Source: Escherichia phage vB_Eco_Bam. Taken from it: DNA of 40,137 bases. The notes beneath the pieces are model-generated. The model did no database searches. It saw nothing but the letters and a program-made list of their open reading frames with translations, and was not told the DNA's origin. The stretch is taken from sequence record OW991346; one strand, given 5' to 3'. Below, piece after piece: positions 1-40,137 of the stretch (position 1 is its first letter; every line of letters starts with the position of its first letter). Position numbers and translations under genes: made by a program.

Positions 1-2685
1 ATGATTAACTTTGATAACATTCAGCGTAATGACTTCTCTGATGTGAAGAACGCCATTATGCCATTCAACGTACTGGCTGATGCTTACGGTGAATATCTGG
101 CTGGTGAACAACTGCGTTTAGAGCATGAGTCCTACCAGATGGGCGAGGAACGTTTCATCAAGGCGTTCGAGTCTGCCTGTAAGCGTGGTGAACTCGGTGA
201 TTCTCTGGTGGCTCGCCCGTTACTGGAAACCTTGGTTCCTGCACTGAGTGAAGCAACTAAAGCATTCTTAGCTCAAGGTGGTCGTGGTCGTCCGCATGTG
301 TCTAAGCAATACCTGAGCCGTATTGACACCGACCTTGCTGCCTTTATCACCATCAAAGTTGTGCTGATGTCCTTGGGTTCTCCTGCGACAGGCAAAGTAA
401 ACAATCACGGTGCTGTTACTGGTGCTAACATGCAGTCAGTCTGTATGTCTATCTCCAAGGCTATCGAGGAGGAGTGCCGCTTCGGTCGCATTCGTGAAGA
501 AGAAGCACAGCATTTCAAGAATCGCGTTAAACCATCGCTGGATAAGCGCCAAGGTCTGCTGTACAAGCGTGAGTACATGAAGGCTGTTGAAGCTGGCATG
601 ATTGCTAAAGGCGAGTTGGATAGTCACTTTGAGGAGTGGCCGCGCGATGAAGCATACCATGTTGGTGTCAAGATGTTGGAGCTGCTGATTGAATCAACTG
701 GTCTGTGCGAGATTGTACGCAAGAACGCTGGTAATCCTAAGTTAGACCGCTACGAAGTGGAACTGACCGAAGAATACGCTGACAAGCTGACCTCTCGTGT
801 GTCTGCCTTGGCTGGTATCTCACCTGTTAAGCAACCTTGTGTAGTACCACCTAAGCCTTGGACTGGTATCATCGGCGGTGGCTATTGGGCAAAAGGTCGC
901 AAGCCTTTGCGTCTGATTCGTACCGGAACTAAACGCGCTCTGATGCGCTACAACGATGTGGATATGCCAGATGTGTACAAAGCTATCAACATCATTCAGA
1001 ACACCGCTTGGAAGGTCAATGCGGACGTGCTGAAGGTAGCTAACGAGATTGTCTACTGGAAGCATTGCCCTGTTGAAGACATCCCACAACTGGACAAGCT
1101 GGATAAACCTGTACGTCCTGAAGGTATTGATGAAGATGAAGCCCTGCTGAAGAAGTGGAAGAAGAACGCTGCGACCATCTACCGCAAGGAGAAAGCCCGT
1201 CAGTCTCGCCGCTTGTCTCTTGACTTCATGATGGCACAAGCTAACAAGTTCGCTCAGTACGATGCCATTTGGTTCCCGTACACAATGGACTGGCGCGGTC
1301 GTGTATATGCTGAGCCAATGTTTAACCCACAAGGTAACGACCTGACCAAAGGTCTGTTAACTTTCGCTAACGGCTGTGAGCTGGGTTCTGAAGGTGCTTA
1401 CTGGCTGGCGGTGCATGGCTCCAACTGTGCGGGTGTCGATAAAGTATCACTGGACGACCGCGTTAAGTGGGTGTACGAGAACGAAGAAAACATCTTGGCA
1501 TCCGCTGAGAACCCATTAGACTGCACTTGGTGGGCGGAACAAGACTCCCCATTCTGCTTCTTAGCATTCTGCTTCGAGTGGGCAGGGTACGTTAAGTCTG
1601 GCCGTAGTGAAGGCTATGTGTCTCACCTGCCACTGGCATTCGATGGTACTTGCTCCGGTCTGCAACACTTCTCTGCAATGCTGCGTGATGAAGTTGGTGG
1701 TGCTGCTGTTAACCTGCTGCCTGCTGACAAACCACAAGACATCTACGGTATTGTTGCCCAGAAAGTAAACGTCCTGTTGGAGCGTGACCTGTTGAACGGC
1801 ACCGAGGACAGCACCAAGATTGTTGTCGATAAGAAGACAGGTGAACAGATTGAGAAGTTTGTTCTGGGTACACGTAACGCTGCTAAACAATGGCTGCAAC
1901 ACGGTGTAAACCGTAGCGTAACCAAGCGTTCTGTGATGACTCTGGCATACGGTTCCAAGAAGTACGGCTTTGCCGAGCAAATCATGGAGGATACTTTACG
2001 TCCTGCCATTGATAAAGGCGAAGGTAATCAGTTCACTGCACCTAACCAAGCTGCAATGTATCTGGCTGGTCTTATCTGGGACTGTGTATCAACTACCGTA
2101 ATCGCTGCGGTACAAGCTATGGAATGGTTGCAGAAGTCCGCTGCTCTGATTAGTTCAGAAGTGCGAGACAAGAAGACCAAGGAGCTGTTAAAGCCTGCTC
2201 TGCCTATTCACTGGACTACTCCTAACGGGTTCCCTGTTTGGTCAGAGTACATGATTCAGGAGGAGAAGCGCATTGAAGCGACTCTGTTTGGTGAACTGCG
2301 TATCCGCAACACTATCAAGCTGCGTGATACCGCCAAGATTGACGCTCAAGCTCAGGCTTCTGGTATTGCACCTAACTTCATCCATAGCAACGATGCGTCT
2401 CACCTGCAAATGACCGCTGTGTACTGCCACGATGTGTACGGGATTGTTGACTTTGCATTCATCCACGACTCATTCGGTTGTCACGCTGGTAAAGCTCACC
2501 TGCTGTTCAAAGGTGTGCGTGAGACAATGGTTAAGACTTACAGTGAACACGATGTAATCGCTGAGTTCTATGAGCAATTCGCTGAGCAACTGCACGAGTC
2601 CCAACTGGACAAGATGCCAGCTCTTCCTGAGAAGGGTAACTTAGACCTGAACGAAATCCTGAAGTCACTGTACACTTTCAGTTAA
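1..2685 (+). CDS. gp1: DNA-directed RNA polymerase, single-subunit T7-type (gene 1)
   Basis: 894-aa ORF; N-terminus MINFDNIQRNDFSD and blocks such as WFPYTMDWRGRVYA, DGTCSGLQHFSAMLRDEVGG, FIHDSFG and the C-terminal LPEKGNLDLNEILKS match T7 RNAP (883 aa) along the whole length from memory. Window starts at its ATG. Confidence 0.97.
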   Translation: MINFDNIQRNDFSDVKNAIMPFNVLADAYGEYLAGEQLRLEHESYQMGEERFIKAFESACKRGELGDSLVARPLLETLVPALSEATKAFLAQGGRGRPHVSKQYLSRIDTDLAAFITIKVVLMSLGSPATGKVNNHGAVTGANMQSVCMSISKAIEEECRFGRIREEEAQHFKNRVKPSLDKRQGLLYKREYMKAVEAGMIAKGELDSHFEEWPRDEAYHVGVKMLELLIESTGLCEIVRKNAGNPKLDRYEVELTEEYADKLTSRVSALAGISPVKQPCVVPPKPWTGIIGGGYWAKGRKPLRLIRTGTKRALMRYNDVDMPDVYKAINIIQNTAWKVNADVLKVANEIVYWKHCPVEDIPQLDKLDKPVRPEGIDEDEALLKKWKKNAATIYRKEKARQSRRLSLDFMMAQANKFAQYDAIWFPYTMDWRGRVYAEPMFNPQGNDLTKGLLTFANGCELGSEGAYWLAVHGSNCAGVDKVSLDDRVKWVYENEENILASAENPLDCTWWAEQDSPFCFLAFCFEWAGYVKSGRSEGYVSHLPLAFDGTCSGLQHFSAMLRDEVGGAAVNLLPADKPQDIYGIVAQKVNVLLERDLLNGTEDSTKIVVDKKTGEQIEKFVLGTRNAAKQWLQHGVNRSVTKRSVMTLAYGSKKYGFAEQIMEDTLRPAIDKGEGNQFTAPNQAAMYLAGLIWDCVSTTVIAAVQAMEWLQKSAALISSEVRDKKTKELLKPALPIHWTTPNGFPVWSEYMIQEEKRIEATLFGELRIRNTIKLRDTAKIDAQAQASGIAPNFIHSNDASHLQMTAVYCHDVYGIVDFAFIHDSFGCHAGKAHLLFKGVRETMVKTYSEHDVIAEFYEQFAEQLHESQLDKMPALPEKGNLDLNEILKSLYTFS

Positions 2686-2704
2686 TAACACCCACTATGG
2701 GACA
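2683..2704 (+). promoter_or_regulatory. phage RNAP promoter, variant (TAATAACACCCACTATGGGACA)
   Basis: Matches the consensus core CACCCACTAT; initiating region GGGA instead of TGGAGA. Directly after the gene 1 stop. Confidence 0.5.
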
Positions 2705-2722
2705 GACAATCCGGTTTGTCCC
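2699..2722 (+). other. 5' leader hairpin at the transcription start
   Basis: GGGACAGAC-AATCCG-GTTTGTCCC, 9-bp stem beginning at the predicted +1, analogous to the stem-loop at the 5' end of T7 late transcripts. Confidence 0.5.
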
Positions 2723-2749
2723 TAATTACTTAACATTTAGGAGGATAAA

Positions 2750-3247
2750 ATGGTTGACTTTTCTGCTGTTGCTGCTGTTGGTTGTGGTGTTCTGAGCATT
2801 GTGTCTTGCGTCCTGATGTCTAAGCGAAGCATGGACAAGGAAGACATGAAGGTACTGCGCGGCCAAGTCCATGAGTTGAACCAAAAGCTGAAGGCTGAAA
2901 AAGAGTACAACGAGTACATGAAGAAAGACTACAAGTCACGCGAGATTGACTGGATGGGCAAGGTCATTGATGAACAACGGGTAGCCAAGGTGCTGCGTGA
3001 CGAGTTAGGTAAAGCACGTAAGCAACTGAACGAGAAGTTACAACCTGCTACTGTGCAGTGTGACGGGGTGTCTATCCGCTTGGACTCCAAGACTTCAATG
3101 AACTTCTCGGTAGGAAAAGTGATTAAAGAACTGTCACTCTCTGTGCTCGGTAACACTGTGACGGTCACTGTAGTTAAACACAATGGAATTGTTAAATCAC
3201 ATACATTCCAGAACGTGAGCTATAGTTACCGACAAGCGCAGCAATAA
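2750..3247 (+). CDS. hypothetical membrane-anchored coiled-coil protein
   Basis: 165-aa ORF with RBS AGGAGG 7 nt upstream of ATG; N-terminal hydrophobic helix (FSAVAAVGCGVLSIVSCVLM), then a charged heptad-like region, then a beta-rich C-terminus. No recognisable T7 counterpart. Confidence 0.6.
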   Translation: MVDFSAVAAVGCGVLSIVSCVLMSKRSMDKEDMKVLRGQVHELNQKLKAEKEYNEYMKKDYKSREIDWMGKVIDEQRVAKVLRDELGKARKQLNEKLQPATVQCDGVSIRLDSKTSMNFSVGKVIKELSLSVLGNTVTVTVVKHNGIVKSHTFQNVSYSYRQAQQ

Positions 3248-3254
3248 CAATAAC

Positions 3255-3293
3255 TTAGGGTAGTCTGTAATGGGCTACCCTTTTGTCGTTTGT
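3255..3293 (+). terminator. rho-independent terminator (early terminator, TE-like)
   Basis: 9-bp stem AGGGTAGTC / GGCTACCCT with 7-nt loop, followed by TTTTGTCGTTTG. Confidence 0.6.
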
Positions 3294-3303
3294 TAATGCC
3301 ACT

Positions 3304-3325
3304 AATTAACACCCACTATTGGAAT
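3304..3325 (+). promoter_or_regulatory. phage RNAP promoter (AATTAACACCCACTATTGGAAT)
   Basis: Near-perfect match to the ~18-copy consensus AATTAACACCCACTATTGGAGA; first of a tandem pair. Confidence 0.7.
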
Positions 3326-3458
3326 ATAATGACAATAACACTAAGTCTATAAACATTAAGTCTATAACTTATTGTCTATACATTTTGTCTTATTGTTATA
3401 TTAATTATTTAACACCCACTATTGGAAACATTAAGTCTAAACACTAAGAGGAAACATT
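3326..3458 (+). other. candidate primary origin of replication (tandem promoters with AT-rich repeated element)
   Basis: AT-rich tract between and after two tandem phage promoters containing repeated TAAGTCTATAA / TTGTCTATACA motifs. T7's primary origin has the same architecture after gene 1. Confidence 0.4.
3407..3428 (+). promoter_or_regulatory. phage RNAP promoter (ATTTAACACCCACTATTGGAAA)
   Basis: Consensus match; 103 bp after the previous promoter; precedes the methyltransferase gene. Confidence 0.7.
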
Positions 3459-4184
3459 ATGTTAGGTGGAGCACCATTTCAGATTGTACAACCTAAAGAG
3501 CCAGTGAAGTTCGGTGGATTAGGTCACGCTAATGTAGGCATAAAGTCATTACCTAAAGACCGTGGTGTATCATGGTCTGACTTCTATAAGGGTCGCTTAG
3601 GTCAGTCCTATGTTAGTCATGTGTACAAGAACTATAAGGTACATATTGAAGCTATTCGCAGATACATCATTCAGCTATCGCTCAGTAAGAACAGCTCAAT
3701 CAAACCACTACGTGTAGTCGAAGCTGGTTGTGGTATCGGGTCTATCACACTGAACCTTGCTGATATGTCAGACCATAAGACAGTTATCTGCTCAGGCTTT
3801 GATGTGTCAGAAGGACAAGTTGTTAACTCTCGTGAGAACGCATTGCTTAACAATGTGGGTGACAGAGTGTCCTTTCATAAAGGTGACATCTTTAATAGTG
3901 ACGTATATAAAGATGCCCACATCATTCACTCTCATGGTGTCTTAGAACACTTCAGTGACGATGACATTATGAAAATCCTATTGACACAACTCAGTTCTCC
4001 TAACGTTCGGTATGTCATTCACTATGTACCACTGGAAGGATGGAAGACTCCCTCTTATGGTGATGAACGCCTGTTACCGCTGACACATTGGGTCAATGAG
4101 TTCGCTCCTACCCGTACCGTTGCGTTCAACGATGGTAAAGACGCTGTGCTAATCTGGGACGTTGAGTCTTTACTTCGCAATTAA
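3459..4184 (+). CDS. class I SAM-dependent methyltransferase (substrate unknown)
   Basis: 241 aa; motif I VVEAGCGIGSIT, acidic post-I residue in ICSGFDVSE, motif II VSFHKGDIFN, motif III HSHGVLEHF. No DPPY/NPPY amino-methyltransferase motif seen. Downstream of a phage promoter. Confidence 0.8.
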   Translation: MLGGAPFQIVQPKEPVKFGGLGHANVGIKSLPKDRGVSWSDFYKGRLGQSYVSHVYKNYKVHIEAIRRYIIQLSLSKNSSIKPLRVVEAGCGIGSITLNLADMSDHKTVICSGFDVSEGQVVNSRENALLNNVGDRVSFHKGDIFNSDVYKDAHIIHSHGVLEHFSDDDIMKILLTQLSSPNVRYVIHYVPLEGWKTPSYGDERLLPLTHWVNEFAPTRTVAFNDGKDAVLIWDVESLLRN

Positions 4185-9052: not shown

Positions 9053-9074
9053 AATTAACCCTGACTATTGGAAA
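9053..9074 (+). promoter_or_regulatory. phage promoter-like element, divergent (AATTAACCCTGACTATTGGAAA)
   Basis: Three changes in the recognition region (CCCTGACT vs CACCCACT); may be weak or non-functional. Confidence 0.4.
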
Positions 9075-35903: not shown

Positions 35904-36044
35904 GTGAAGGTTAAAAAGCGTATTGTTGCCGCTGTGGTTCTGGCATCCCTGATTGTTCTGGGTGCTATCTTTGAAACCGACCTGACCAAGATGGCTGACG
36001 CTCTGGTGTCCGTCTCTTGCTCTATCGTTGAGTGTACACAATGA
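35904..36044 (+). CDS. hypothetical 46-aa single-pass membrane protein
   Basis: GTG start 5 nt after strong RBS GGAGGT; product MKVKKRIVAAVVLASLIVLGAIFETDLTKMADALVSVSCSIVECTQ has an N-terminal signal-anchor-like helix; stop overlaps the holin ATG (ATGA). Below the ORF-track cut-off. Confidence 0.45.
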   Translation: MKVKKRIVAAVVLASLIVLGAIFETDLTKMADALVSVSCSIVECTQ

Positions 36045-36250
36045 GTCTTGAACTTAACTTTGGAGATGCTGTAATCCGCTCTGCCCCTGTTGGTGGGGCG
36101 GTTGCAACAGACTTAGTAGCAAGGTTCATGGGTCTAACACTTCACGAGTGGTTCTATGTAGCGGCCATAGGATACACTTGCATTCAAGGGTGGGCAGTAA
36201 TCTATAAGACTCTCAAGAAGTACAAGGAGGATAATGTAAATGACACCTAA
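36041..36250 (+). CDS. gp17.5: holin (T7 gp17.5-like)
   Basis: 69 aa from ATG 36041; LNEWFYVAAIGYT resembles T7 holin (LNEWFYVAAIAYT). Confidence 0.8.
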   Translation: MSLELNFGDAVIRSAPVGGAVATDLVARFMGLTLHEWFYVAAIGYTCIQGWAVIYKTLKKYKEDNVNDT

Positions 36251-36485
36251 AGAGTTTGAGCTATTACTTCAGGAACTAGACTACGAAGCTGCAAAGCTGA
36301 TGTTACAAGACCTGAAGAACGACGAGAAGCGTAACCCTCAGTTGTTTAACGCTGTGGTTCGCATGTTGGAACGCCACAAGCATACAATTGCAAAGGTTGT
36401 TCCTGATGAAAGCATTCTGACCAGTCTTGCGTCTGAACTACCAGACCTGACTGAAGATGAACAATATGGAGGTATCTTACAATGA
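36240..36485 (+). CDS. gp18: terminase small subunit (T7 gp18-like)
   Basis: 81 aa; RNPQLFNAVVRMLERHK matches T7 gp18 (RSPQLYNAIVRMLDRHK); RBS AAGGAGG. Confidence 0.9.
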   Translation: MTPKEFELLLQELDYEAAKLMLQDLKNDEKRNPQLFNAVVRMLERHKHTIAKVVPDESILTSLASELPDLTEDEQYGGILQ

Positions 36486-36625
36486 ACCGTATCGTAACTT
36501 GGGTTCTGTTGGTCTGTGTGTGGACTGCTGTTCTGCTGAGTCTCAGTGGTTGCACCATTATGATTGACAGTCCAAACTCACAACCAATGGTTGAATGTGG
36601 TGACTTGTTAGGTATCACCCTGTAA
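36482..36625 (+). CDS. hypothetical 47-aa lipoprotein
   Basis: ATG overlaps the gp18 stop; RBS GGAGG 9 nt upstream; signal peptide with lipobox LSLSGC, leaving a ~24-aa mature peptide (CTIMIDSPNSQPMVECGDLLGITL). Below the ORF-track cut-off. Confidence 0.45.
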   Translation: MNRIVTWVLLVCVWTAVLLSLSGCTIMIDSPNSQPMVECGDLLGITL

Positions 36626-36941: not shown

Positions 36942-38694
36942 CAAAGACAAACTCATTCTAGCTCGCCTGAAGGCTGACTTTGTGGCGTTCCTCTTTGTCC
37001 TGTGGAAAGCGTTGAACCTTCCTAAGCCTACTCGGTGTCAAATCGACATGGCTAGAAAGCTCGCTGCTGGCTCTGAGAGACGTTTTATCCTTCAGGCATT
37101 TCGTGGTATTGGTAAGTCCTTTATCACCTGTGCGTTCGTTGTATGGAAGCTCTGGAACAATCCTCAGTTGAAGTTCATGATTGTGTCTGCTTCAAAGGAA
37201 CGTGCTGACGCTAACTCCATCTTTATCAAGCGTATCATTGACCTGTTACCGTTCTTGCATGAGCTGAAACCTAAGCCTAACCAACGTGACTCTGTAATCA
37301 GCTTTGATGTTGGTCTAGCGAAACCTGACCACTCTCCTTCAGTTAAGTCTGTTGGTATCACTGGTCAGTTGACTGGTAGCCGTGCTGACATCCTGATTGC
37401 GGACGACGTTGAGGTTCCTAACAACAGTTCCACACAGGCTGCTCGTGACCGCCTAGGTGAGCTTGTAAAGGAGTTTGACGCTATCTTGAAGCCTGAGGGT
37501 ACTATCATCTACCTTGGTACTCCACAATGCGAAATGACGCTGTACAGAGAGCTTGAGAACCGTGGTTACACTACTACCATCTGGCCTGCTCGTTATCCTA
37601 AAGACCGCAAAGACCTTGAGTCGTACGGCACACGCTTAGCTCCTATGCTTCTGGAAGACCTTGAGGAAAACCCTGAGGCCATGTGGTGGACACCTACTGA
37701 CCCTGTACGCTTCGATGATGAAGACCTGCGGGAACGTGAGTTGTCATATGGTAAGGCTGGCTTTGCGTTACAGTTCATGTTGAACCCTAACCTGAGTGAT
37801 GCCGAGAAGTATCCACTCAAGTGTCGTGACTTCATTGTGGCGGCTGTAGGTGATGACTTTGCGCCTTTGACCTACCAATGGCTACCTAACCACGAGAACC
37901 TAGCTGGGAACGTCCCTGCGGTGGGTTTGAAGGGAGACACATACCACTACTACCACGTAGCAGATAAGCGCACTGCGGCCTTCTCAGGCAAGATTCTGGC
38001 TATTGACCCTAGTGGTCGTGGTAAGGATGAAACAGGGTATGCTGTCTTGTACTTCCTCAATGGCTACATCTATGTGATGGCTATGGGTGGCTTCCGAGGT
38101 GGTTACGATGATGAAACCCTTGAGAAGCTAGCTAAGGTTGCCAAGCGATGGAAAGTCAATGAGGTTCTGGTGGAAGGTAACTTTGGTGACGGTATGTACC
38201 TCAAAGTGTTCTCTCCGGTACTGGCTCGTATTCATCCTTGTACGTTGACTGAGACTAAGAGTAAAGGTCAGAAGGAACAACGTATTGCTGATACCATCGA
38301 ACCTGTCTTAGGTGCTCACCGTATGGTTATCACTGAGGATGCAATTCGTCACGACTATCAGACTGCTCGTAATATTGATGGTCAGCATGACATTAAGTAT
38401 TGCTGCATGTATCAACTTACACGTCTGACTCGTGAACGCGGCGCATTGGCTCACGATGACCGTCTGGACGCATTGGCAATCGGGGTGGCATATTTCCTTG
38501 AGTCAATCGAGAAAGACGCTCAGAAAGGCGCTGAGGAGCTTACAGAGGAATGGTTGGAAGACCAACTCAATGCTGAACGCATCAGTGACCAACTGAGTGA
38601 CTACATTGTGCATCAAGGCGATGTGGAAATCCGAGTAGGTTACCAAAATGAGGACGCATATTGGGTCACTAACCTAGTTGGGTTTGACCGGTGA
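36922..38694 (+). CDS. gp19: terminase large subunit (T7 gp19-like)
   Basis: 590 aa; near-collinear with T7 gp19 ([81 protein letters not shown]). Confidence 0.97.
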
Positions 38695-38750
38695 TATGTT
38701 AACAAAGATGGTTAAATGTTAACGAATTGAGTAGATTTTTGACCATTTTG

Positions 38751-38772
38751 AATTAACACCCACTATTGGAGT
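38751..38772 (+). promoter_or_regulatory. phage RNAP promoter after the last gene (phiOR analog)
   Basis: AATTAACACCCACTATTGGAGT; no ORF downstream; followed by a structured repeat region. Confidence 0.75.
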
Positions 38773-38782
38773 ATACGACAAT

Positions 38783-38863
38783 AAGAGGGAACATTAAGTC
38801 TATAGACACTAGGAGAGTCGACCTTAGAGTAGGCACTCAGTCTGACCTTAGTGTTCCCTCTTT
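38783..38863 (+). repeat. inverted repeat AAGAGGGAACA ... TGTTCCCTCTT flanking a 59-bp spacer
   Basis: Perfect 11-bp arms at 38783-38793 and 38853-38863; spacer contains palindrome GTCTATAGAC and direct repeat GACCTTAG(A/T)GT; directly after the last phage promoter. Confidence 0.7.
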
Positions 38864-39039
38864 GTCTTGGGAGTATTCTTCATTATTAGAATAACTCCCT
38901 TCTCTTTGTGTAGAGACACTGAGGCGTATCTTGGAGGTGATTGTATGAGGAAGACTACCCTTATGGTCACCTACTATGTGGTTAAAGTTACCTTCTTGGT
39001 TTACCTGTTGGTAACCCATGCTGGCGCTTAATCTCGGTA

Positions 39040-39510
39040 TCCTTATCAGTCTACCTACGATTAAGTGTCTAGTGTCAATACCCTTATGTTAGTGACCTTA
39101 TGTGTTAACCTTAGGGTAGGTTGGTCTTAGTGTCGCCTACCTTATGTTGTTAACACTATGTTAGTCCATTTTGTACAACACTAGAAAAATCTGAGTGACC
39201 ATCTCACATATCAAGACCCATTTAATCCCCCCCATAGGGGTCAAACCTTATGTCCATCCCTTATGTCATTCCCTAAGTCTATCATTTTGTCTATCAATAG
39301 GTTTTAACTCTCGGTTGAGGTGGGGACAATAGGTGGAGACTATGGGTTTGTATCTCTATGTCTCCCTATCTGTATAGACCTTGTGTCTCCTCTCTATGTC
39401 TCTACCCTTATGTCTCCTCTCTATGTTCTATCAACTAGGCAGCATCCTACCTTATGTTAGACCCTAGGTCAATAACCTTATGTCATAGACCCTATAAATA
39501 GACCTTATCT
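39040..39510 (+). repeat. array of ~12 short direct repeats (consensus CCTTATGT) in the genome-end region
   Basis: Motif recurs at irregular spacing, e.g. ACCCTTATGTTAGTGACCTTATGTG, CTACCTTATGTTG, AACCTTATGTCCATCCCTTATGTC, CTACCCTTATGTCTCC, CTACCTTATGTTAG, AACCTTATGTCATAG; includes a 27-bp imperfect tandem at 39379-39432. Confidence 0.7.
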
Positions 39511-39521
39511 ATATAGACCAT

Positions 39522-39543
39522 AATTAACACCCACTATTGAAGA
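39522..39543 (+). promoter_or_regulatory. phage promoter-like element with altered initiation region (phiOL analog?)
   Basis: AATTAACACCCACTATTGAAGA: recognition region perfect, +2 is A instead of G. Confidence 0.4.
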
Positions 39544-39574
39544 ACAACAATCTTAATTATTTTAATATTGAGTA

Positions 39575-39603
39575 TTGACATTAGAACTTAGTGTCTATAG
39601 TAT
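39575..39603 (+). promoter_or_regulatory. sigma70-type host promoter (A1-like)
   Basis: TTGACA, 17-bp spacer, TAGTAT; AT-rich UP-like tract (TCTTAATTATTTTAATATTGAGTA) immediately upstream. Confidence 0.6.
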
Positions 39604-39703
39604 GGCGTCCATCGAAGGGAAACACGGAAACGGTGCGACTCTGAGATTACAGCGTCAAGCGGTACAAGTAGACAGCCTGCTAAGTCATACGAACAACAGG
39701 TAC

Positions 39704-39732
39704 TTGACAACAGAAACAAGAAACACTAAGAT
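39704..39732 (+). promoter_or_regulatory. sigma70-type host promoter (A2-like)
   Basis: TTGACA, 17-bp spacer, TAAGAT; same hexamers as recalled for T7 A2. Confidence 0.55.
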
Positions 39733-39774
39733 ACACCACAACGAAACAACAACAGAAACACCAACAAATAGGAG

Positions 39775-39803
39775 TTGACAATGTTCAAGTTAAAATGTAA
39801 AGT
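39775..39803 (+). promoter_or_regulatory. possible sigma70-type promoter (A3-like), overlapping a small ORF start
   Basis: TTGACA, 17-bp spacer, TAAAGT; overlaps the RBS and ATG of the 39781 ORF, so one of the two calls may be wrong. Confidence 0.3.
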
Positions 39804-39924
39804 GATGCCAATCCACAACAAACAGGGTCACACAGTATGTACACCTGATGGATTTGCGATGAATGCTCGTGTTGAACGACTGAAGCGTGAACTCAAGATG
39901 AATCGTATGCTGAACAACATCTAA
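39781..39924 (+). CDS. hypothetical small early protein
   Basis: 47 aa; RBS AGGAG 6 nt upstream of ATG; downstream of sigma70-type promoters; basic. Confidence 0.4.
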   Translation: MFKLKCKVMPIHNKQGHTVCTPDGFAMNARVERLKRELKMNRMLNNI

Positions 39925-40054
39925 TAGCTACGATAATCAAGCAACACTGCTGGTCTTGTTGTACTACGCAACTGCAAATGTAGTCGGGACGATGAAACTG
40001 CTATCCCTAAAGTTCTTTAACAATCTGGTATAAAGCGCATGTGTTGAGTTAGAA

Positions 40055-40100
40055 AGTGATTGACTCAAGGCTGCTGAATGTAGTAGCCTTTATGACAAGC
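40055..40100 (+). promoter_or_regulatory. RNase III-type processing site in the early leader (R0.3/R0.5 analog)
   Basis: ACTCAAGGCTGC-TGAATGTA-GTAGCCTTTATGA: same flanking consensus (ACTCAAGG...GGCCTTTATGA) with a divergent upper stem. Confidence 0.4.
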
Positions 40101-40137
40101 ATTTAATTTCAGCCACTATAAGATGGAGACAACAACA

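Follow-up and report, generated by a model that had tools for sequence, protein, structure and literature searches.

Many T7-like phages of the T3, K11 and Berlin types, and others that infect Aeromonas, carry a gene of the 1.05 class directly after the RNA polymerase (RNAP) gene, and it is with these systems that we compare ORF165, an open reading frame (ORF) encoding 165 residues next to the RNAP gene of Escherichia phage vB_Eco_Bam (record OW991346; the whole 40,137-nt stretch analysed is called the window). T3 gp1.05 has 90 residues and is a domain-only form. The first post-RNAP genes of JELG-KS1 (ORF8, 171 residues), phiA014S (174 residues), PPWS4 (ORF6, 132 residues), K11 ('gp1.05 fusion protein', 186 residues) and P483 (gp36, 185 residues) encode proteins with an N-terminal transmembrane (TM) helix, a charged helix and a C-terminal beta domain of ~70 residues, the charged helix being long in JELG-KS1 and phiA014S but only ~20 residues in PPWS4. 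The C-terminal domain corresponds to Pfam PF25755 (Phage_T3_1_05) in JELG-KS1 (E=4.5e-27) and PPWS4 (E=6.5e-25), and matches it marginally in phiA014S (E=0.11). A tblastn search located the 1.05 domain in 539 phage records, not one of which assigns it a function, and the phage-genome papers that mention 1.05 enter its function as unknown or leave it blank.

About half of the T7-like phages sampled have a family member in this fixed position by the RNAP gene: 38 of 81 T7-like loci from IMG/VR contain an ORF with the 1.05 domain, at a median distance of 102 nt after the RNAP gene. An N-terminal TM helix is present in 26 of these 38, and most family members are predicted to be inner-membrane-tethered cytoplasmic proteins of early to middle infection. 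The charged helix, or stalk, varies from 0 to ~90 residues, and the short forms lack the TM helix. The gene is dispensable, as T7 and several relatives do without it; the slot after the RNAP gene holds an HNH endonuclease in T7-Ah and is empty in ICP3. ORF165 occupies this slot and is very probably a diverged branch of the gp1.05 superfamily, a placement that removes an apparent ORFan annotated as hypothetical, although the result is ordinary for the window taken alone. The first-pass annotation of the window, made from its sequence, had missed that the slot is that of gene 1.05 in T3-like phages.

Relationship of ORF165 to the gp1.05 superfamily

The window is a T7-like coliphage of the Mak/Titus/Bam group; over positions 2400-3600 it matches Escherichia phage vB_Eco_Titus at 100% identity and vB_Eco_Mak at 99.9% (Autographiviridae, Studiervirinae). 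The three phages Mak, Bam and Titus, all unpublished, make up a tentative new genus (PMC10974468). Owing to circular permutation the window starts within the RNAP gene, which occupies 1-2685, and the nearest described relatives, with RNAP identities of ~64-66%, are Aeromonas phages T7-Ah, PT2 and PZL-Ah152 and Vibrio phages ICP3, N4 and VP4. The gene itself is defined by two features:

2750-3247, + strand: ORF165 coding sequence including the stop codon, 165 residues
2739-2744, + strand: Shine-Dalgarno sequence AGGAGG, read from the sequence, 5 nt upstream of the ATG

The start codon is fixed by a TAG in the same frame at 2738-2740, which leaves no room for an N-terminal extension. ORF165 lies directly 3' of the RNAP gene in all five known genomes or contigs (Mak, Titus, Bam and the metagenomic contigs L003 and L004), its counterparts MAK_002 and TITUS_052 being annotated as 'hypothetical, no BLASTP similarity'. 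The protein is 96% identical on L003 and 90% identical on L004, with ratios of nonsynonymous to synonymous substitution rates (dN/dS) of 0.09 and 0.20, respectively; ORF165 is a real coding gene under purifying selection. One further metagenomic protein, P0004 (74 residues), is a chimera of an overlapping upstream frame (window 2697-2795, MGQTI...) with ORF165 residues 83-102 and ~137-165. It looks like a doubly deleted ORF165 derivative and may stem from a relative's pseudogene or from faulty assembly.

Direct searches returned only proteins at least 90% identical to ORF165 and one deleted fragment, in a 5.8-billion word-indexed search, a 1.84-billion exhaustive phmmer search and a tblastn search of 50,697 phage records. 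Pfam, PHROGs, PADLOC, NCBIfam, PDB sequences and Rfam gave no significant match, and scans of IMG/VR and JGI metagenomes with ORF165 alignments yielded no further relative beyond a single contig, L018. This IMG/VR contig, whose RNAP C-terminus is 66% identical, provides the link to gene 1.05. The order after its RNAP gene is a 105-residue gp1.05 (PF25755, E=7e-25), a 174-residue protein (L018_174), a 52-residue membrane ORF, a terminator, a promoter and the ligase gene; the terminator tail CTTTTGTCGTTT is identical to that of the window. L018_174 has its own phage promoter and a TM, helix and beta architecture. It matches ORF165 with 37% identity over 62 residues (BLASTP E=9e-10; phmmer 29-32 bits) and the neighbouring L018 gp1.05 with 43% identity over 37 residues (E=1.3e-4), so that the two comparisons form a transitive chain from ORF165 to a recognised family member.

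Profile comparisons point in the same direction. With L018_174 added to the ORF165 alignment, hhalign against the long-form family gave 89.6% (E=1.9e-6, 120 columns), and against families B and C together it gave 94%. By profile, the nearest subfamily is the phiA014S type (Aeromonas phage phiA014S, WVX92082.1; metagenomic P0006-P0014 and P0019; 174-179 residues), which scored 92% against ORF165 with L018_174 and is itself tied to canonical 1.05 proteins at 97%. It shares with ORF165 the slot, the size, the architecture and an NTVTVV...G strand motif, whereas pairwise identity is ~11-15% and its N-tail is longer (13 residues). A custom hidden Markov model (HMM) built from 28 1.05-domain sequences scored the ORF165 C-terminus at 10.5 bits (E=3.3e-5 as a single comparison), a value reached by 3 of 5000 residue shuffles, 4 of 5000 shuffles that preserve the hydrophobic pattern and 4 of 5000 block shuffles. 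When 810 six-frame segments were ranked, the ORF165 orthologues, three in number, came right behind the true family members, and MAFFT, unaided, placed the ORF165 and gp1.05 domains in register.

Several observations weigh against this placement. The PF25755 model is silent, even at E<=10, on whole ORF165, on its C-terminal 70 residues and on L018_174, whereas it gives 87-94 bits to JELG-KS1, to PPWS4 and to the short form of L018. Without L018_174 hhalign falls to 10-31%, with residues 121-153 always aligned to the equivalent part of 1.05, and even with L018_174 the domain-only comparison gives 48.5%; compositionally similar helical segments may supply part of the full-length score. The motifs KTEFKLGLGPCG, NGERK and GRIE are mostly lost: ORF165 reads KTSMNFS--VG, NGIVK and YSYR in their places (alignment A4), where GPCG and GRIE are absent and only the G of NG, G146, is kept as a nearly invariant residue. 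As a gp1.05 and a gene of the ORF165 type are both present on L018, ORF165 represents a paralogous branch and not an orthologue of canonical 1.05. A single-sequence reverse search of the ORF165 C-terminus against gp1.05 proteins likewise did not detect canonical 1.05. Because ORF165 is below the Pfam gathering threshold for PF25755 (27 bits) and lacks most signature motifs, we do not file it as a member of that family.

These results bear on the alternative that ORF165 is an unrelated, lineage-specific ORFan that happens to occupy the 1.05 slot and has acquired its architecture by convergence. The harvest of direct searches, restricted to near-identical proteins, the silence of Pfam and PHROGs and a domain-only hhalign score below 50% are what such a gene would give. 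The transitive chain through L018, the shuffle tests (p ~8e-4), alignments that are co-linear by every method and identical regulatory and topological features argue the other way, and we consider convergence improbable. Placement in the gp1.05 superfamily combines remote homology of the domain, a post-gene-1 position with promoter and hairpin, and the long-form architecture, all of which were found for ORF165.

Two other resemblances were noted. A match to a 1358-residue autolysin (E=4e-10) suggested an SH3b domain; the score was summed over nine near-identical repeats, Pfam SH3_3 gave no match and hhalign gave 10%, and the reading was dropped. In about ten IMG/VR T7-like contigs (L059, L063, L069, L075, L081, L084, L087 and L088 among them) an ORF of 66-71 residues (MKFAHKQTGVNGGTQIVTVTEHNGKGLVKTT...) lies right after the RNAP gene, for example at 3410-3610 of L063. 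Its similarity to the ORF165 strand pair NTVTVTVVKHNGIVKSHT is weak (E=0.13-0.3), and it may represent the ORF165-type branch in a short form reduced to the domain. The gp1.05 domain profile found no relative in the PDB.

Architecture, topology and the spanin question

The protein can be divided into three parts:

2759-2818, + strand: N-terminal TM helix, residues 4-23, predicted reverse signal anchor, Kyte-Doolittle 19-residue mean 2.27
2819-3040, + strand: charged helical stalk, residues 24-97, possible coiled coil, from AlphaFold2
3047-3244, + strand: C-terminal beta-rich domain, residues 100-165, diverged gp1.05-like, six predicted strands

For residues 4-23 a simple Hessa-scale sum is about -0.2 to +0.4 kcal/mol. 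AlphaFold2 places one helix over residues 5-96, followed by strands, with low confidence (predicted local distance difference test, pLDDT, 47), and models the C-terminal 70 residues alone as six beta-strands (pLDDT 64). Charged residues make up 46-48% of the stalk. No significant heptad periodicity is seen (P=0.09 for residues 27-60, P=0.48 for residues 27-97), and weak PDB sequence matches of ORF165 are to coiled-coil proteins; a coiled coil is plausible. The differences in L004 are concentrated in residues 27-50, where the hydrophobic a/d positions M33, L/M36, V/I40, L43 and L47 are retained, which fits a helix under packing constraint. The first-pass annotation had described a 165-residue protein composed of an N-terminal TM helix, a coiled coil and a beta-rich C-terminus. 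This anatomy agrees with the hydropathy and the six predicted strands; of the coiled coil, the long helix is predicted and the heptad pattern is not significant.

The distribution of charge around the TM helix suggests its orientation. The N-flank of ORF165 (MVD) contains no K or R and its 15-residue C-flank contains five; in 30 long-form proteins from all three branches, the N-flanks hold a single K or R in total and the 15-residue C-flanks hold 122. According to the positive-inside rule, the positively charged flank predicts the cytoplasmic side, so the family-wide bias implies an N-out/C-in arrangement with the stalk and C-terminal domain in the cytoplasm; this is the topology predicted for ORF165 and for the long-form family. 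The long forms share with ORF165 an acidic or neutral N-tail, the TM helix, a C-flank rich in K and R and a basic beta domain of ~70 residues. E. coli ZipA offers a topological analogue: it is bitopic and N-out/C-in in the inner membrane, its N-tail is acidic, K/R residues follow its TM helix, and its linker and globular domain are cytoplasmic. It is a host division protein unrelated in sequence. Two other readings of the N-terminus were rejected. IVSC (residues 17-20) fits a lipobox, but residues 1-7 lack K and R and include D3, unlike a bacterial lipoprotein; a signal-anchor-release (SAR) domain is ruled out by an n-region without positive charge.

The predicted orientation also matters for a comparison with the i-spanins lambda Rz and T7 gp18.5, which have in common with ORF165 an N-terminal TM helix, a long helical segment and a similar size. 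Canonical i-spanins are N-in/C-out, with a periplasmic coiled coil, and their o-spanin gene is embedded, overlapping or adjacent in the lysis region (PMC6139136). ORF165 sits between gene 1 and the ligase gene, far from the holin and gp18 genes, which lie at 35904-36625 together with a small TM protein and a lipoprotein:

35904-36044: 46-residue TM protein ending C..VECTQ, candidate spanin
36482-36625: 47-residue lipoprotein with an LSGC lipobox, mature length 24 residues, candidate spanin

The window has no spanin of the gp18.5/18.7 type, and the candidate pair, separated by the holin and gp18 genes, is homologous to adjacent pairs in T7-Ah and ICP3 (L008 4004-4296; L009 3265-3605). Kongari et al. 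list the VP4/ICP3 pair as 'separated' spanins, with the ICP3 homologues flagged 'too small?'. Indeed, the pair in the window looks too short for the periplasm (21 + 24 periplasmic residues), and ORF165 and the lipoprotein have one Cys each outside the anchor, which together with the TM helix and the long helix that follows it could be taken to mean that ORF165 is the i-spanin partner of this outer-membrane lipoprotein, encoded 33 kb away. We regard such a partnership as very unlikely. The predicted topology of ORF165 is the opposite one, its C-terminus is a beta domain, its predicted transcription is early and middle with a terminator of its own, and no lipoprotein gene is embedded in it, overlaps it or adjoins it: ORF165 itself is the only lipobox-containing ORF that starts on the + strand in 2600-3500. 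Moreover, T7-Ah and ICP3 keep the pair of small TM protein and lipoprotein and have nothing like ORF165 or 1.05 in the slot that follows the RNAP gene, and a stalk that can shrink to nothing within the family is not what is expected of a spanin. The likeness to an i-spanin is superficial, as had already been stated from the sequence.

Transcription signals around ORF165

Predicted transcription signals lie on both sides of the gene, and candidate early promoters lie near the end of the window:

2683-2705, + strand: phage-RNAP promoter TAATAACACCCACTATGGGACAG, -17 to +6, overlapping the RNAP stop codon
2699-2722, + strand: 5' stem-loop GGGACAGAC/GUUUGUCCC of the promoter transcript, -14.7 kcal/mol, z=-3.0
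3257-3281 (stem), T-tract to 3291, + strand: intrinsic-terminator-like hairpin and T-tract TTTGTCGTTT, -15 kcal/mol, z=-3.9
39575, 39704 and 39775 (span 39575-39803), + strand: three sigma-70-like promoters, candidate early promoters, with perfect TTGACA, 17-nt spacer and -10 hexamer, consensus matches only

The promoter core AACACCCACTAT occurs in 15 exact copies in the window, all on the + strand and ahead of genes; allowing up to two mismatches, 21 matches were observed against 3.9 expected. The copy upstream of ORF165 differs from the genome consensus AATTAACACCCACTATTGGAG at two positions (in the -14 region and at -1), and its sequence identifies it as a promoter of the phage-RNAP type, not a sigma-70 promoter. 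Its predicted +1 is G2700, where the 5' hairpin begins. This hairpin is unchanged in L003 and L004, and the arrangement of RNAP stop codon, phage promoter, +1 hairpin and gene is common to the window and to T3, K11 and P483, where the promoter is phi1.05; the slot, the promoter and the hairpin are features that ORF165 shares with the T3 gene 1.05 family. The stem-loop leader also resembles that of T7 phi10. An RNase III site was considered for the hairpin and dropped, the stem being just 9 bp.

Downstream, none of 200 shuffles folds as stably as the hairpin at 3257-3281. Terminator patterns are no more frequent than in shuffled sequence (1 found against 1.0 expected), and the element, which has both the pattern and the stability, is a putative terminator. 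It is invariant in L003 and L004, a conservation that is uninformative, as the flanks are identical too. ORF165 is the sole gene between the RNAP stop codon (2685) and this terminator, which is also the first credible + strand terminator downstream of the sigma-70-like promoters. The early unit thus appears to consist of these promoters, a 47-residue ORF, the RNAP gene, ORF165 and the terminator, and from the order of these signals ORF165 is probably the last gene of the early operon transcribed by the host RNAP. A second round of transcription from its own phage promoter is predicted, making its transcription early and middle. The first-pass annotation had the promoter, the 5' hairpin and the position of ORF165 as the only gene before the terminator right; its proposal that the gene is expressed early with the RNAP is retained for the host-RNAP phase and has to be extended by the middle phase.

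The position of the terminator differs between relatives. A terminator-like hairpin precedes the 1.05-like gene, directly after the RNAP gene, in JELG-KS1 and phiA014S (L011 4912-4933; L012 5235-5256), whereas it follows the 1.05-like gene or genes in the clade of the window and in L018 (4478-4510).

Just past the terminator lies an AT-rich stretch, 3295-3458 (26% GC), flanked by phage promoters at 3308 and 3411 and containing short direct repeats (TAAGTCTATAA twice, TTGTCT three times); with its tandem promoters and AT-rich region, the layout resembles the T7 primary origin.

Possible roles of ORF165 and neighbouring features

The explanation that we favor, and consider probable though less secure than the superfamily placement, is that ORF165 is a diverged, membrane-anchored protein of the gene 1.05 class, transcribed early and middle, which tethers a domain for partner binding. 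Host RNAP would transcribe the gene last in a very short early operon, and phage RNAP would transcribe it again from the dedicated promoter, yielding an mRNA with a stabilising 5' stem-loop and a strong ribosome-binding site. The protein would enter the inner membrane by its N-terminal reverse signal anchor, with three residues in the periplasm and with the charged stalk of ~74 residues and the small basic beta domain of ~66 residues in the cytoplasm. The variation in stalk length across the family suggests that the stalk acts as a spacer, which would position the gp1.05-like domain, possibly in dimeric form, at the membrane on its cytoplasmic side. There the domain would bind a membrane-proximal partner, the likeliest being a host protein that it inhibits or redirects.

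As to the class of partner, the majority of the T7 class I/II proteins that are non-essential act as inhibitors of host proteins (Ocr, 0.4, 0.6, 0.7, 1.2, 2, 4.5, 5.5, 5.9). On this base rate, a host-takeover or anti-defence binder is the likeliest class for ORF165, an analogy that makes it the leading candidate while stopping short of making it probable. Host takeover, superinfection exclusion and anti-defence had all been suggested for ORF165 by the first-pass annotation, and each is plausible as a proposed role. Some points count against the tethered-binder explanation as a whole: the topology is derived from the positive-inside rule alone, the structure models are of low confidence at the pLDDT values given above, no family member has a known function, and the mechanism is drawn from architecture and base rates only.

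Superinfection exclusion can be phrased as a specific alternative, in which ORF165 blocks genome entry of a second T7-like phage from the cytoplasmic face of the membrane. Such a factor would be membrane-located, early, fast-evolving and dispensable in some lineages, as ORF165 and its relatives are or are predicted to be, and the deleted chimera P0004 shows a metagenomic variant of the gene. Exclusion genes are usually sporadic, whereas the position of the gp1.05 superfamily is fixed across many genera, and ORF165 resembles none of the known exclusion or defence proteins (PADLOC, 0 matches); we think exclusion unlikely.

Another alternative assigns to ORF165 a role in organising replication or the phage genome, in the manner of p16.7 of Bacillus phage phi29, which organises membrane-associated replication (PMC11476376); the basic domain would then bind phage DNA or the replisome and so confine replication, or the incoming genome, to the inner membrane. 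The family proteins are basic (median isoelectric point, pI, 9.4), and the C-terminal domain of ORF165, at pI 9.8, is more so than the family median for this domain (8.5). The gene adjoins the AT-rich, origin-like stretch with its two phage promoters. The design is also similar, as p16.7 is an early protein with an N-terminal membrane anchor, a coiled coil and a cytoplasm-facing C-terminal functional domain. That domain is helical and not beta, ORF165 has no sequence similarity to the p16.7 chains in the PDB, and host and phage family differ, so the comparison is an analogy only. Moreover, T7 replicates well lacking any 1.05 gene, no DNA-binding motif was found, and short forms devoid of TM helix and stalk are hard to reconcile with a membrane organiser. 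We consider this role unlikely too, by a hair less so than exclusion. For the long-form gp1.05 proteins in general, tethering of origin-proximal DNA, the replisome or a transcribing RNAP-DNA complex to the inner membrane is conceivable at about the same low level as exclusion; if true, it would amount to an unnoticed functional counterpart of p16.7 in about half of the T7-like phages. As T7-like phages are a main model of host takeover and are much used in therapy and engineering, a conserved anchored accessory protein is a reasonable experimental target.

Further observations concern the genome around ORF165. Between ORF165 and the ligase gene, a SAM-dependent methyltransferase gene occupies 3459-4184 (Methyltransf_31, E=1.7e-10); it is also present in L003 and in Aeromonas phage PZL-Ah152, and in L004 it is replaced by a short unrelated stretch. 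The early region (38694-40137, wrapping to 1) is very small, comprising the three sigma-70-like promoters and tiny ORFs before the RNAP gene, with neither ocr nor the 0.7 kinase, whereas L004 (RNAP 95.5% identical; 1-2400) has 0.6, ocr and a 0.7-type kinase. Relative to the Mak record OX001577.1, window coordinates are offset by 206 at 2.4-3.6 kb and by 80 at 36 kb; the unequal offsets mean that the window is no simple rotation of that record, though each is 40137 bp long, and indels may account for the difference.

Finally, the promoter type tracks the polymerase. Promoters of the window (e.g. at 3308, 3411 and 4183) read AATTAACACCCACTATTGGAG, and those of its 96%-identical relatives L003 and L004 read AATTAACCCTGACTATTGGAG. 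The RNAPs of L003 and L004 differ from that of the window by 37-40 substitutions, clustered at residues 103-130 and 752-771 (the specificity-loop region), and one promoter of the L003/L004 type is kept in the window, at 9057.

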